A DNA stretch of 64,000 nucleotides, from sequence record OR906198.1, one strand, 5' to 3'. The notes below the pieces were generated by a model. The model did not search any database and was not told the DNA's origin. It worked only from the letters and a program-made list of their open reading frames with translations. The DNA comes from Escherichia phage BP32. Positions 3,434-61,644 of this stretch are shown in pieces. A program made the position numbers and the translations under genes. Within the stretch, counting starts at the first letter, position 1. Every line of letters begins with the position of its first letter.

Positions 3434-4984
3434 TTAGTAATGAATTTTAATAATATAGTTTAATGATATATTCCATGGTCTAGTTTCATAACCAATTAAT
3501 CCTTCACGATTAAGTGTACCAAGGGCATCTCTCGGTCCACCCAATTCAAATCCATCATTAGTGAAGTATGAAGCATTATCCCAGTCGGAATATTTTCTAG
3601 TTCCAAGATATCCTTGATAAACGGACGCGCCAAATGGAGCTTCATGTCTTTGGTATTCTCCCCAACCACCAGCGTGTTTATGGTATGACATTTGTTGTGC
3701 CTGAACACCACCAACATGCATTCCGTCACATCCTACGCCAAGTCTATCCTTCCCATAACCATCTTGTCCACGTTGATTTAAAATATGACCGCCCGTGCCA
3801 GCTCCTCTAACAAAAAGACCTCTCATATCAGGAATCCCTGGATTATTCCAATCACCACCAAATCTTGCTCCAACCGTGTTTCTATAATCAGGATATTGAT
3901 CTCCTGACACGGTTCCGCCGTGGCACATAACCCAACCCGGAGGTGCTGAATCACCTGCAAACATCATAATAGTTCCAACTGGAACTCTTTCGGACGCATA
4001 TCTTTCAGTGGCAACAGGTTGATCGCCATTTTTCCACATTCCGCCGCGCGACCAAATTCCGTTTGCTGTAAGATGGTCTAAATTTAAAGAACCATTAATA
4101 GTTTGTCCACCACGAGTATTAATTACATCTGCGTTCCATGCTAATGCACCAGAGCTATCACCTTCAGGGGCAATACCGGCTTGCGTCGTTAATTTAACTA
4201 CTCCGCGCATAGAACCAGTAGCTCCTCGACCATTTAGTGTTTCACCTGTTACTGCAACATCTCCCAAATTACTGTTAATTTCTGATTGTGTTCCTAAACG
4301 TATAACACCCTTATATTCTTGTGTTGCAACAGAATTCATAAAGGTATACGGAGAAATTGCATATCCTTCGCGGAGAGTTCCTTGACGAGTTTGCGCAACA
4401 GTAGATAATTGAACTACACCTCTCACAGATTCTGATGCAGTATCTTCGGAAGGAGCTATTTGTGAAATTAATTTTATTGCAAGTTTTTGTGTTTTTAATG
4501 GAGTCATTGCCGTAGTATCATCAACTCCAGCTAAAGCTGCAGGTGTAGATGATATTTTAATAACCCCGTTTGATGACTCAGACGAATATCTATTTTGGAA
4601 CACATCGTCAGTGTGGTATTTCAGTTTTTGCGGCGTTATTGATGAATTATTATCTGAACCTTCTAATGTTTCTTCATTTGTTGAATAACGCGTTAAACCA
4701 TATTTAGTTTCAGTAGCATTTGGATACAATAATCTTGTTGCTAATGTAGCTGGTGTAACGATTTTGGAATTATTAGTTCCATCTAAAACCTCTTGCTCTG
4801 ACGCAATCATTGCTATTCCTTTAACTTCCATAGTTGCATCAGGAATACCATTTACGCCGATATTACTTATTTTTGATAATGCAGACTGCACTGTCGTGAC
4901 AGTGTCAGGAAAATTCGATCCTGCAGGATCGAATTTAACATATTTTGATTCATTTGATACGTGCTGATATGTATTGTTACTCAT
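3434..4984 (-). CDS. 12: gp12 short tail fiber
   Basis: 516-aa ORF between wac and 11, T4 gene order; ATGA overlap with gene 11 stop. Confidence 0.9.
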
Positions 4985-5640
4985 GCTATTCTCTCAAAAT
5001 AATAAAATACCGTAGGTTGTGTGTGACTATCTAGCGTGACAGTTTGCGCACCTAATAATTGCCAAGTTCCGTATCCAGGTTTAGAAGGAGAAATTATTTC
5101 TTGTTTGAAAGTAATTCCTTTATCAGAGTATTGTTCTAAGATATGTTCTTGGTTATCTAAATACTTAACTTGTATTTTATTTCCTATGGTAGGATGGTCT
5201 TCAAATGAATCAATTGCAATAAATTTTGCAACCATTTCCTGCAGAGCTGTTCTAACGGCACTGGTAAATTCGATTGAAGTCATTCCGTTAGTAGCTTTAA
5301 CTGGAATACCAAACATGTTAACAATAACTGGGTCACCTGGTTTGGCTGAAGTATCATTGACAGTTCCTTCAAATGACCAATAGTCTGTTTGCTGCACGCC
5401 AGTAGGAGATACACCGCTTATATTAACTAATACAGCTCCAACTTGTTGCTCTGCCATATTTCTAACATCATTGATAGCAGATTCTACATTTGGGTCATAA
5501 AACCCTTTTGCTATTTGTGAAATTGTTACAGCGCCTACTGGCTGATTATTCATAACCGAAATATCATTTTTCTTAGTTCTAAAACCAAGAAAATCTGCTA
5601 AGCGGGAAATAACTCCCGCTTTATTATTAAGTAAACTCAT
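4981..5640 (-). CDS. 11: gp11 baseplate wedge / short tail fiber attachment
   Basis: ORF track gives 225 aa; start placed at internal ATG (MSLLNNK..., 219 aa) whose ATG overlaps the gene 10 stop (TAATG). Confidence 0.85.
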
Positions 5641-18082: not shown

Positions 18083-18906
18083 TGGCTATTTTTCAAATAA
18101 TTAATGAAAGCACTCCCCAAGTTCCAAAGGTTAAACAATCATTAAACGAAAAGAAATGGATTCAGATAGGTCTTGAATACAAAAAGGCCAAAGCAAAAGG
18201 AATGACAGGAAAGCAATTTGCTGAAGAAAGAGGAATCAAATACTCTACGTTTACTTCGGCAATGTCAAAATATGCTTCAGGAATTAAAACAGCTGAAAAG
18301 ATTCAAAAGCTTGAATCAAAACCAATGAATAAACTCAATAAGCAAGAAAGACAACTGCTTATGATAAATTCATTCAGACAAACATTGCGTGATAAAATTC
18401 GTAATGAAGGTGCAGCAATTAATAATAAAACCAGAAAGTGGTTTGCTGAAACTATTAAACAGGTAAAAGGACATAAAGTTGTTCGCCCGCAGCCGGGACG
18501 AATATATGCTTTTGCTTATGATGCTAAACACAAAGAAACTCTTCCTTATTGGGATAAATTTCCTTTGATAATTTATCTTGGTTTAGGTAAACATAATTTA
18601 ATGTACGGATTGAACTTGCACTATATTCCACCTAAAGCTCGTCAGCAATTTCTAGAAGAGCTTTTAAAGCAATATTCAAATACACCTACTATTACTAATA
18701 AAACGAAATTGAAAATTGATTGGAGTCAAGTGAAAGGATTTAGGGGTGCAGATCAAATGATTAAGGCATATATACCTGGTAATATTATGGGTAGCCTTGT
18801 TGAAATCGCCCCGAAAGACTGGGCGAACGTTGTGTTAATGCCACTTCAGCAGTTCGTTTCAAAAGGAAAACGTTTCTCTGCAAACAAAGTCTGGTCAAAT
18901 ATCTAA
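18082..18906 (+). CDS. 2: gp2 DNA end protector
   Basis: 274-aa ORF, ATGA-coupled to gene 4, T4 length and order. Confidence 0.85.
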
Positions 18907-31590: not shown

Positions 31591-31953
31591 ATGAAAGCAT
31601 ATCAAATTCTTGAAGGCACGCATAAAGGTACTATTTATTTTGAAGACGGTATTCAAGCACGAATTATTGTCTCTAAAACTTTTAAAGAGGACTCTTTTGT
31701 AGACCCAGAAATTTTCTATGGTTTGCATGCCCGTGAAATTGAAATTGAAACACAGCCTACAGTTAAAATTGAGGGTGGTCAACACCTGAACGTAAACGTT
31801 CTGCGTCGTGAAACTCTGGAAGATGCAGTTAAGCATCCGGAAAAATATCCGCAGCTGACCATCCGTGTATCCGGTTATGCAGTTCGCTTTAACTCTCTGA
31901 CTCCGGAACAGCAGCGCGACGTTATCGCTCGTACCTTTACTGAGAGTCTATAA
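31591..31953 (+). CDS. autonomous glycyl radical cofactor (GrcA/YfiD-like)
   Basis: C-terminal glycyl-radical motif [27 protein letters not shown]; start at ATG 31591 (120 aa); I recall a T4 GrcA homolog (Y06I). Confidence 0.8.
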
Positions 31954-32174
31954 TGGCAAAGATAATTATTGAAGGTTCTAAAGATGTGCTAAATGCTTTC
32001 GCCGAGTGGTTTAGTAATTCAGGCGAACAGCAATTTAATGAAGCGTGGAACATGGGTGATATTAGTGGAATTTATCCTACAACAGAAATTTCTGTTCAGG
32101 GATATGGCATTCATGAACCTATTCGTTTAGTTGAATATGATTTATGTACTGGTGAGGAAGTCAAATATGATTGA
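31953..32174 (+). CDS. hypothetical protein
   Basis: 73-aa ORF, TAATG-coupled to upstream gene. Confidence 0.5.
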   Translation: MAKIIIEGSKDVLNAFAEWFSNSGEQQFNEAWNMGDISGIYPTTEISVQGYGIHEPIRLVEYDLCTGEEVKYD

Positions 32175-33239: not shown

Positions 33240-33785
33240 ATGAGAAAAGCACTACTCGCTGGTCTATTGGCCATTTCTATGATGGCACATAGCTCCGAGC
33301 ATACTTTCAGTAATGTCCAACTCGATAACATGCGTTACGCGTATCAATTCGGGGAACAATTTTCTAAGGATGGAAAATATAAAACACACAAAAATATCCA
33401 CAAGAGCGGATTGGGTCATATAATGGCTGCTATTTTATGGCAAGAAAGCTCTGCCGGAGTTAATTTAAAATCTAAACCAAAGCATCATGCCTATGGAATG
33501 TTCCAAAATTATTTGCCTACTATGCGAGCAAGAGTTAAGGAACTTGGTTATAATATGACCGATGCTGAAATAAAAAGAATGTTGAATAAACGGTCCAATT
33601 CAGCTTCCTGGGCGTACATTGAACTTTCTTATTGGTTAAATATACATAAGGGCGATATAAGAAAGGCGATATCCTCTTATAATTCGGGATGGAATGTTAA
33701 AGCAGGTTCTAAATATGCTTCTGAAGTCCTAGAAAAGGCTAATTACCTTAAAAATAATAAACTTTTGGAAATAGTAAATGACTAA
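33240..33785 (+). CDS. secreted lytic transglycosylase (SLT domain)
   Basis: signal peptide MRKALLAGLLAISMMAHS; SLT motifs WQESS, YGMFQ, SYNSGW. Confidence 0.7.
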   Translation: MRKALLAGLLAISMMAHSSEHTFSNVQLDNMRYAYQFGEQFSKDGKYKTHKNIHKSGLGHIMAAILWQESSAGVNLKSKPKHHAYGMFQNYLPTMRARVKELGYNMTDAEIKRMLNKRSNSASWAYIELSYWLNIHKGDIRKAISSYNSGWNVKAGSKYASEVLEKANYLKNNKLLEIVND

Positions 33786-34119
33786 AATTTTGGTTTTATG
33801 TATAGGATTAATTTCATTTTCTGCGTTAGCAAATACATCATACACTGAAATTAGAGAGTATGTAAACCGTACTGCCGCGGATTATTGTGGGAAAAATAAA
33901 GCATGTCAAGCCGAATTTGCGCAGAAATTAATATATGCATATAAAGATGGAGAAAGAGATAAATCAAGTAGATACAAAAATGATACATTGTTAAAACGAT
34001 ATGCTAAAAAGTGGAATACCTTAGAATGTTCAGTTGCGGAGGAGAAAGATAAAGCCGCCTGTCATTCAATGGTTGACCGTTTGGTAGATTCTTATAATCG
34101 AGGATTGAGTACTAGATGA
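33778..34119 (+). CDS. small secreted protein
   Basis: 113 aa with signal peptide MTKILVLCIGLISFSALA and four Cys; overlaps SLT gene end. Confidence 0.6.
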   Translation: MTKILVLCIGLISFSALANTSYTEIREYVNRTAADYCGKNKACQAEFAQKLIYAYKDGERDKSSRYKNDTLLKRYAKKWNTLECSVAEEKDKAACHSMVDRLVDSYNRGLSTR

Positions 34120-34595
34120 TTGTAAAATATATCAAGGGCGATATTGTCGCCCTATTTCTTCAAGGTAATATTATTGCGCACGGGTGCAATTGTTTTCATA
34201 CAATGGGCTCTGGCGTAGCAGGTCAATTAGCAAGAGCCTATCCCAAAATTTTAGAAATAGATAAAACCACTACTGAGTACGGTTCTCGTGATAAATTAGG
34301 CGATATGTCTATTGTTTTTAAACATAATCCTACGGGATTTGGTATATGCTATAACTTGTATACGCAATACGAACCGGGTCCTAATCTTGATTATGGTGCT
34401 TTAGTAAACTGCATGATAGAATTAAATCTACAGGCAGAGACCCTTTTGTTTAAACCAGTAATTTATATTCCACGCATAGGTTGTGGTATTGCTGGTGGTG
34501 ATTGGGATAAGGTTTCTAAATTAATCGACATGTTTACTCCTGATATTGATTTAATAGTGGTGGATTATGAAAGTACATTACCCGCATCCGTTTGA
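34116..34595 (+). CDS. macro-domain protein (ADP-ribose binding/processing)
   Basis: 159 aa; N-terminus IKGDIVALFLQGNIIAHGCNCFHTMGSGVAGQL matches macro-domain glycine-rich pattern. Confidence 0.7.
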   Translation: MIVKYIKGDIVALFLQGNIIAHGCNCFHTMGSGVAGQLARAYPKILEIDKTTTEYGSRDKLGDMSIVFKHNPTGFGICYNLYTQYEPGPNLDYGALVNCMIELNLQAETLLFKPVIYIPRIGCGIAGGDWDKVSKLIDMFTPDIDLIVVDYESTLPASV

Positions 34596-34779
34596 TCCTA
34601 AAAACAAAGTGGAAATTATTCGTCAATGGGAACGCATTTGCCGTACTAAATGTCCAATTAATAGTCCTCATGATGTAGATAAAGACTATATAGGAACATT
34701 CGTTGAATATACCTTTATTGATAAGAAAGGTCGTAAACAGCACGTAGAAGAATATTGCTTAAAGGTTACATGGTTATGA
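34567..34779 (+). CDS. hypothetical small protein
   Basis: 70-aa ORF overlapping neighbours. Confidence 0.45.
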   Translation: MKVHYPHPFDPKNKVEIIRQWERICRTKCPINSPHDVDKDYIGTFVEYTFIDKKGRKQHVEEYCLKVTWL

Positions 34780-34982
34780 GCCAAACTAGTATTCTTAAAA
34801 ATGCTCATTGTGAAAAGTGTAAATGGCCGGTTGTTTTTGCTTTATGTAATGATGAAATGGCTTGTGATTTCGATTATTGGTGCTATTGTTCTAATAAAGG
34901 ATGCATCAATCATAAAGGTGAAGGATTTTATTCAGGATTTTATCCTTATCCTGATTTCGTTAAAGAAGGTAAACCAAAATGA
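34770..34982 (+). CDS. Cys-rich small protein (zinc-ribbon-like)
   Basis: about 71 aa with CEKC...C...CYC...C pattern; start uncertain (ATG 34755/34770/34776). Confidence 0.45.
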   Translation: MVMSQTSILKNAHCEKCKWPVVFALCNDEMACDFDYWCYCSNKGCINHKGEGFYSGFYPYPDFVKEGKPK

Positions 34983-35155
34983 ATGATGATTTAAAATATC
35001 AATTATTACGTGAACTTGATGTTTTGATTGAACTTTCTGCACAAAAAGGATTTATAATTGGATCGGGTCAAAAAGACCCCAACGGTCATTCAATCGTAGC
35101 GGTTATGAATCAGAAACGAGTCATTTTAAAACTTTTGGGGATTGACATACTGTGA
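34979..35155 (+). CDS. hypothetical small protein
   Basis: 58-aa ORF (below ORF-track cutoff), ATGA-coupled. Confidence 0.35.
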   Translation: MNDDLKYQLLRELDVLIELSAQKGFIIGSGQKDPNGHSIVAVMNQKRVILKLLGIDIL

Positions 35156-35337
35156 GCCTAAGCAAAGAACAAAAAGATAAATTGTTTGAGCTTATCCATG
35201 AACTTCTAGATGAGCATACAGAAGCAAACACCTTTTATGATGAATACGGCCCGCTATCTCCCGAACAGCAGGAAGAATTTGCTGATCGGTTTGATAAGAA
35301 AGAAAATGAATTAATAGCTTATGTGAATACGCTTTAA
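35152..35337 (+). CDS. hypothetical acidic small protein
   Basis: 61-aa ORF with GTG start overlapping previous stop. Confidence 0.4.
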   Translation: MSLSKEQKDKLFELIHELLDEHTEANTFYDEYGPLSPEQQEEFADRFDKKENELIAYVNTL

Positions 35338-35346
35338 GAAGGTGAT

Positions 35347-61254: not shown

Positions 61255-61644
61255 ATGACTAAAATTACTGTGAATTATACTGTTGATGTAAAAGATATTC
61301 AGCCAAAACACGTGCGTTCTGAATCAAATCCACAAAACCAAAATAAAATTCGTCGAGCATGGGTTTTGTCTCTTTCTGATAACGCGATGGAAGTTATTCA
61401 GAACAAAATTAAATCTGCACCTGCTCGTCATGCGTATTATGAAGCTATCGATCGTGAAGTGAGTGATAAATGGATTGAACTGATGCGCAAACATACGACA
61501 GAATCTCTAAACGCTGGTGCTAAATTTATTATGACTTCATGTGGTGAACGCCTTGAAGATGATTATTGCGGTAATGCAGATGAACGTCTAATTGTTGCTG
61601 CTCAAATTGTTGCGGAAACAATTGCTGCTGATTTTAATCGTTAA
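61255..61644 (+). CDS. rpbA: RNA polymerase-binding protein RpbA
   Basis: 129-aa ORF immediately upstream of gene 45, T4 length and position. Confidence 0.8.

Follow-up and report, generated by a model that had tools for sequence, protein, structure and literature searches.

A macro-domain protein of Escherichia phage BP32 is a divergent version of T4 Tk.4 (AdfM) and a likely DNA ADP-ribosylglycohydrolase against DarT2

Introduction

What a small macro-domain protein does for a T4-like phage, and by what chemistry, is the question raised by one gene of Escherichia phage BP32 (sequence record OR906198.1), of which a stretch of 64,000 nucleotides, here called the window, was analyzed. The gene is an open reading frame (ORF) with an ATG start at 34116..34595 on the + strand (stop codon included), which appeared in the ORF listing of the window with a product of 159 amino acids (aa). 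Our analysis showed that the product is the BP32 version of T4 Tk.4, also named AdfM (anti-DarT factor Macrodomain), and suggested that it most likely serves as an orphan, antitoxin-like DNA ADP-ribosylglycohydrolase against DarT2 with chemistry like that of the Streptomyces coelicolor protein SCO6735. Recognition of the macro (A1pp) domain dates from the T4 genome annotation and the anti-DarTG2 role of the orthologue has already been published; the finding mainly confirms the existing annotation and this recently published function.

Results and Discussion

Identity and fold of the macro protein

The macro ORF is a genuine gene rather than a chance ORF, because homologues were found by tblastn in 2,777 of 50,697 phage records and annotated copies are present in close relatives, where identical or near-identical ORFs are labeled "macro domain protein" or "phosphatase". 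The protein matched the Pfam Macro profile PF01661 over residues 22-136 (E=5.8e-8), and the match spanned profile positions 2-117 of 118 (116/118 positions). A preliminary description of this DNA had named a macro domain and suggested such a profile search, which scored 33.1 bits (gathering score, 22); the stretch it had quoted as the macro-domain pattern corresponds exactly to residues 6-38, IKGDIVALFLQGNIIAHGCNCFHTMGSGVAGQL. The domain assignment was borne out by the profile match, by the predicted fold and by the intact, invariant motifs of the ADP-ribose pocket.

The ORF also matched PHROG 335 (E=1.6e-71), into which T4 Tk.4 (NP_049723) falls as well. Gene order in BP32 runs regB, vs.1, vs, macro gene, tk.3 ... 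tk, the same as in T4, and the macro ORF therefore occupies the T4 tk.4 slot; the "tk-proximal" position given in the preliminary description was right. Early timing of this gene cluster would be expected from what is known of T4. Aligned without gaps over 155/155 residues of T4 Tk.4, the BP32 protein was identical at 90/155 (58%; E=1e-70). Both are single-domain proteins encoded between vs and tk.3, both carry the motifs HGCNC, NLYTQ and PRIG...W, and their first 14 residues are identical. The T4 protein has 155 aa and the BP32 protein 159, with four extra residues at the C-terminus, in the overlap with tk.3. From the ORF, the Pfam match, the identity, the synteny and the AlphaFold2 model, the BP32 gene is the positional orthologue of T4 tk.4, and its product belongs to the Macro family and the Tk.4/AdfM orthologous group.

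The AlphaFold2 model, built from a 93-sequence alignment, had a mean predicted local distance difference test score (pLDDT) of 93.6 and a predicted template modeling score (pTM) of 0.89. The modeled protein showed the three-layer alpha/beta fold and the Gly-rich ADP-ribose-binding loops of a macro domain. Fold comparison values were highest for Bacteroides BT1257 (2afc; 18.4), followed by the Mycobacterium tuberculosis DarG macro domain (17.7), Poa1p (17.3), TARG1 (16.8) and Thermosipho DarTG (16.6), with coronavirus and MacroD-type domains below 14; Foldseek returned the same leading group. The Tk.4 family profile matched BT1257 (7e-19), TARG1 (3e-16), SCO6735 (5e-15), Poa1p (4e-14) and DarG (2e-11), and BT1257 and SCO6735 are close homologues of each other (E=1e-53). 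Because of the fold comparison and the family-profile matches, the BP32 protein is placed in the TARG1/DarG/Poa1p/SCO6735 macro sub-class, and its nearest solved relatives are SCO6735 and BT1257.

Counter-defense against DarTG2

The function proposed for the BP32 protein was transferred by orthology and active-site conservation, because the T4/T2 protein, which has been tested, is 58% identical to it. When a T4 transposon library was screened on a DarTG2 host (HIDEN-SEQ), tk.4 was the sole significant hit, and a clean tk.4 knock-out made T4 DarTG2-sensitive, upon which the gene was named adfM; the same 2025 preprint noted the similarity of Tk.4 to M. tuberculosis DarG and, in its words, removal of ADP-ribose by an enzyme "seems likely" (bioRxiv 10.1101/2025.11.20.689424). 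T4 without adfA and adfN (gene 30.3) remains DarTG2-resistant, and a further factor had been predicted (PMC11825919). The screen and the knock-out supported the DarT-type counter-defense that the preliminary description had put forward (bioRxiv 10.1101/2025.11.20.689424), and by sequence comparison the BP32 allele would share the anti-DarTG2 function of the T4 allele.

That description had also connected the protein with Thoeris, for which no evidence was found, and with the phage's own modifications by Alt, ModA and ModB, for which none was found either. The latter idea would make the protein a regulator of the marks that these transferases leave on host proteins or on RNA-protein conjugates, or an enzyme that reverses ADP-ribosylation of RNA bases; we regard it as very improbable. 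Tequatroviruses do encode Alt, ModA and ModB, none of which lies in the BP32 window, relatives in the same macro class are active on several kinds of linkage, and reversible ADP-ribosylation of uracil (U-ADPr) on RNA has reportedly been observed. Alt and Mod, however, modify arginine, whereas the substrates of the characterized enzymes in the TARG1/DarG/SCO6735 class are acidic-residue esters and thymidine. We saw no genetic connection with the alt or mod genes, and the sole reported tk.4 phenotype is on DarTG2 (bioRxiv 10.1101/2025.11.20.689424).

The active site and its chemistry

Among 93 homologues, down to approximately 38% identity, 12 positions were invariant: H22, G23, N25, C26, G33, A35, D49, N80, Y82, Q84, P119 and W130. 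Four of these fall in the H-x-x-N active-site motif, H22-G23-C24-N25-C26 (34179..34193, + strand). The first Gly-rich ADP-ribose-binding loop, which holds the macro GxG motif, is M30-Q37 (MGSGVAGQ; 34203..34226, + strand); G33 and A35 were invariant there and M30 and G31 nearly so, and G31 and G33 were invariant over all reference macro domains in a 12-sequence alignment. The segment N80-L81-Y82-T83-Q84 (34353..34367, + strand) contributes three further invariant residues, of which Q84 stands at the column of the catalytic Lys. The second Gly-rich loop, which binds the diphosphate, is P119-W130 (PRIGCGIAGGDW; 34470..34505, + strand), with P119 and W130 invariant and I121, G122, G124, G127 and G128 at least 94% conserved.

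Column correspondences were taken from the 12-sequence alignment and from a HMMER profile alignment to TARG1 and BT1257, and both agreed. The sequence and columns of SCO6735 were reached via its close relative BT1257; a 7-sequence MAFFT alignment was set aside, as it misplaced the "ANMIGQ" segment of SCO6735/BT1257, and the TARG1 sequence used was confirmed against PDB 2lgr (151/151 aligned residues match). In these alignments the Q84 column held K84 of TARG1, K80 of Thermus aquaticus DarG (FPTK motif), the corresponding Lys of PhiKZ gp104 and Gln85 of SCO6735, and the N25 column held N23 of PhiKZ gp104, N26 of Poa1p and N27 of SCO6735. H22 aligned with H24 of SCO6735 (H24-V25-C26-N27) and with H23 of Poa1p.

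The closest correspondence was with SCO6735 (PDB 5e3b) and BT1257 (2afc, 2fg1), which like the BP32 protein are stand-alone macro domains with an H-x-x-N motif, with Gln at the catalytic-Lys position in N-x-x-x-Q, and with a PRIGCG[IL]AGGxW loop. The SCO6735 motif ANMIGQ, which contains Gln85, corresponds to NLYTQ of BP32, and the second loop of BP32 nearly equals PRIGCGLAGGxW of SCO6735/BT1257. The two differ from the BP32 protein in sharing only ~25-29% identity with it and in a longer loop after the Gln, and SCO6735 is, unlike the BP32 gene, bacterial, DNA-damage-inducible and of non-phage origin. SCO6735 frees DNA of thymidine-linked ADP-ribose and protects against DarT, its Q85A and Q85E variants are inactive, and the proposed mechanism is water-mediated, with the Gln positioning the distal ribose and the V25 backbone positioning the catalytic water; mutations at H24 and N27 were examined as well (PMC9411070). 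The enzyme was also active on synthetic oligonucleotides carrying thymidine-linked ADP-ribose (T-ADPr; PMC12879935).

The invariant Q84 places the Tk.4 family, by alignment, with the Gln-type enzymes. Because this invariant Gln stands in place of a catalytic Lys, the chemistry is predicted to be SCO6735-like rather than of the DarG/TARG1 kind. Thymidines in single-stranded phage DNA would be ADP-ribosylated by the host DarT2. The BP32 protein would hold the ADP-ribose in its macro pocket, formed by H22-x-x-N25, the two Gly-rich loops and N80...Q84, and would cut the bond between ribose and thymine, so that the DNA could again be replicated by the phage. Hydrolysis would probably depend on Gln84 and be independent of a Lys.

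Several observations weigh against this proposal. For T4 Tk.4, hydrolysis was proposed in the preprint from structural similarity alone (bioRxiv 10.1101/2025.11.20.689424). The T4/T2 allele, which is the one tested on DarTG2, and the BP32 allele differ in 42% of their residues, some of them in the second Gly-rich loop, and no host DarT2 is in view for BP32. By sequence, the BP32 protein is about as near to Poa1p as to DarG. By alignment reading, K34 and K89 of SCO6735, which are used on DNA substrates, are replaced by S32 and G88 in BP32, so that of the SCO6735 features the Gln at the Lys position and the H-x-x-N motif (H22-G23-C24-N25) were found and the two Lys residues were not. The catalytic Lys of DarG/TARG1 is missing as well, its place being taken by Gln84. 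Published work describes this Lys as the catalytic residue, and the respective enzymes lose activity with K80A or K84A (PMC9967889; PMC8883491). Its loss is nevertheless no argument against DNA de-ADP-ribosylation, because SCO6735 uses Gln at the same position.

The absence of a Lys-type nucleophile might instead be taken to favor protection that is mainly non-catalytic, in which the protein would bind and inhibit the toxin or mask modified or target DNA. Catalytically dead SCO6735 Q85A, DarG K80A and TARG1 K84A all lowered DarT activity in vitro, with SCO6735 having the strongest effect (PMC9411070), and a contribution of such inhibition is possible. As the main activity we consider it improbable. 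A counterpart of the C-terminal DarT-binding domain of DarG is missing from the 159-aa protein, and the one stand-alone bacterial homologue that was examined has no adjacent DarT. The residues that stay invariant even in distant homologues from phages and bacteria line the pocket for ADP-ribose, a pattern in keeping with selection for ligand binding or catalysis and not for recognition of one toxin.

That the BP32 protein is itself a DarG was rejected, as it scored 27.8 bits against a 250-bit cut-off (NCBIfam NF048014) with only the macro part matched, as Lys80 of FPTK is replaced by Gln84, and as it has neither a C-terminal DarT-binding domain nor an adjacent darT. The NF048014 match extended over positions 2-142 of a DarG model 338 positions long, and the PADLOC DarG match was likewise weak and confined to the macro part; the DarG macro domains used for comparison were those of T. 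aquaticus (5m31) and M. tuberculosis (5m3i). A Gln-type DarG was sought by looking for darT beside one stand-alone bacterial homologue, and no darT neighbor was present. Most likely, the BP32 protein acts like an orphan antitoxin.

PhiKZ gp104, also called AdfM, resembles the BP32 protein as a phage-encoded single macro domain whose N23 corresponds to N25. It counters DarTG2 and strips the ADP-ribose added by DarT2 from DNA in vitro, and its N23A variant is less active (PMC13309987). Unlike the BP32 protein, it keeps the FPTK Lys and is closely related to DarG (E=9e-25 against that of M. tuberculosis), with only ~21% identity to the BP32 protein. The name AdfM, given independently by two groups, thus spans two macro lineages with different catalytic residues, because PhiKZ gp104 is a Lys-type close relative of DarG and T4 Tk.4 is of the Gln type and nearer to SCO6735/BT1257; the two share only ~21% identity.

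The historical annotation points to another activity. The T4 record describes tk.4 as "phosphatase; contains A1pp phosphatase motif", "Poa1p-like" and "A1pp" are further labels carried by Tk.4-type annotations, and "phosphatase" recurs among the close relatives. A Poa1p-type phosphatase or esterase would act on ADP-ribose-1''-phosphate, O-acetyl-ADP-ribose or a similar soluble metabolite or immune signal derived from nicotinamide adenine dinucleotide (NAD), and not on DNA. Poa1p (6lfq-6lfu) and TARG1 (4j5q-4j5s) share the ALC1/TARG1-like macro class and the overall fold with the BP32 protein. An HxCNC motif is common to Poa1p (HSCNC) and BP32 (HGCNC), and of the probed Poa1p residues, for which the PDB holds H23A and S30A mutant structures, H23 is conserved as H22 and S30 aligns with T29. 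A comparative-genomics argument in favor of such an enzyme has also been made (PMC9503650).

Other columns differ between Poa1p and the Tk.4 family. Position 84 is Ser in Poa1p and Lys in TARG1, not the invariant Gln of the Tk.4 family, and Poa1p carries a long insertion. Phe152 of Poa1p, another probed residue, and Asp125 of TARG1 correspond to Ala126 of BP32, and the F152A mutant was the best-scoring Poa1p variant. T4 tRNA repair by Pnk and Rnl1 should not yield ADP-ribose-1''-phosphate. A small-molecule activity would also leave unexplained the sole known phenotype of the T4 orthologue, which is on DarTG2, a DNA modifier. DNA and small-molecule activities are compatible, as TARG1 and SCO6735 each have several substrates, and we assign only a slight probability to an enzyme of the Poa1p type in place of a DNA ADP-ribosylglycohydrolase.

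A second major allele of tk.4

The macro gene is strongly diverged from T4 and is set in conserved flanks. Protein identity to T4 was 100% for regB, 99.4% for vs.1, 96.5% for vs, 58% for tk.4, 92.9% for tk.3 and 99.5% for tk, so that the neighbors stood at 93-100%. At the nucleotide level, identity to T4 was 100% at the vs/tk.4 junction and ~80-90% over the first ~35 codons, and it fell to 37-68% (60-base windows, sliding identity) in a diverged core at about 34230..34600 on the + strand. Beyond ~34600, inside tk.3, it returned to above 88%, and the flanks of the core were ~90-100% identical to T4.

The T2 protein is identical to T4 Tk.4. The window-type allele was looked for in T2 and was not there, T2 carrying the T4 allele; in the compared loci, tk.4 lies at 4923-5390 of the T4 locus and at 18424-18891 of the T2 locus. 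At 90% identity or more, the window-type allele was found in 312 phage records and the T4-type allele in 224, with 159 more at 80-90%. As sequenced phages commonly carry either class, the window type represents a second major tk.4 allele, about as common as the T4 type, and not a decaying copy.

The alleles differ in the second Gly-rich loop, which reads GCGIAGGDW in BP32 and GAGIGKGNW in T4/T2, where the whole loop is PRIGAGIGKGNW. Loss of function in the BP32 allele appears unlikely by this comparison, because the BP32 loop fits the family and SCO6735 consensus better than the T4/T2 loop does. T4/T2 Tk.4 has Gly126 and Lys127 at positions where 89-94% of the family, including the BP32 allele, has Ala126 and Gly127. 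The two alleles, set in near-identical Tequatrovirus backbones, might be non-equivalent in substrate or defense specificity, with respect for example to DarT2 clades, sequence contexts, uracil-ADPr RNA or another ADP-ribosylating toxin; we hold this to be unlikely.

The gene also contains a possible RNA element near its 5' end. A hairpin, AGGGCGATATTGTCGCCCT, with a T-rich stretch after it, occupies codons 7-13 of the macro gene (34135..34153, + strand) and was picked out by a terminator-like match and by its folding energy. Its stem has 8 base pairs, is G+C-rich and has an energy of -12.9 kcal/mol. The hairpin is base-for-base the same in T4 tk.4, despite the strong divergence of the remaining gene. 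Attenuation, RNA stability and RNA processing are possible roles, or the hairpin may simply belong to a conserved 5' flank for recombination.

Genomic surroundings

The window belongs to a Tequatrovirus, and the 3 kb around the macro gene are 98% identical to Salmonella phage pSe_SNUABM_01 and Escherichia phage teqdroes. All genes around the macro gene lie on one strand. The upstream neighbor, vs, encodes the valyl-tRNA synthetase modifier (33778..34119, + strand; 96.5% identical to T4 Vs), and its stop overlaps the macro start in an ATGA read from the sequence (34116..34119, + strand). T4 has a like vs/tk.4 junction, with the end of vs at 61386 and the start of tk.4 at 61389. The overlap suggests translational coupling of vs and the macro gene within one transcription unit. 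Downstream, tk.3 (DUF7202; 34567..34779, + strand) begins within the macro gene and overlaps its last 29 nucleotides. A promoter scan was uninformative, finding 18 sites against 20.5 expected from shuffles.

The vs.1 homologue upstream of vs (33240-33785, + strand) encodes a protein of 181 aa that is 99.4% identical to T4 Vs.1. The N-terminus of this protein resembles a signal peptide, and the protein matched the Pfam SLT lytic transglycosylase profile with 23.4 bits against a cut-off of 21.3. In several relatives its homologues are wrongly labeled "RegB domain-containing". Further upstream, T4 Vs.5 matched 31953-32127 (+ strand) in two frames, with its residues 1-17 falling at 31953-32003 and its residues 17-58 at 32002-32127, which indicates a frameshift or an indel relative to T4; teqdroes annotates a 73-aa product in this region.

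The interval between tk.3 and tk (34776-35340, + strand) is non-collinear with T4 and forms a second variable patch adjoining the divergent tk.4 allele. It holds a 68-aa "Phage zinc binding domain" gene (PF23895) at 34776-34982, present in T2 and absent from T4, a 58-aa ORF with no Pfam match at 34979-35155, and a 61-aa DUF7438 ORF at 35152-35337 that is 52% identical to T4 Tk.2. T4 tk.1 had no counterpart in this interval.

Implications

Any difference between the two tk.4 alleles in protection against DarT toxins would bear on the prediction of host range for therapeutic T4-like phages on DarTG strains. If the alleles were indeed non-equivalent, the cassette-like replacement of tk.4 would be the record of an arms race at this locus, and the Tk.4 family would represent a Gln-type, Lys-independent form of DarT2 resistance, separate from the DarG-derived AdfM of PhiKZ.
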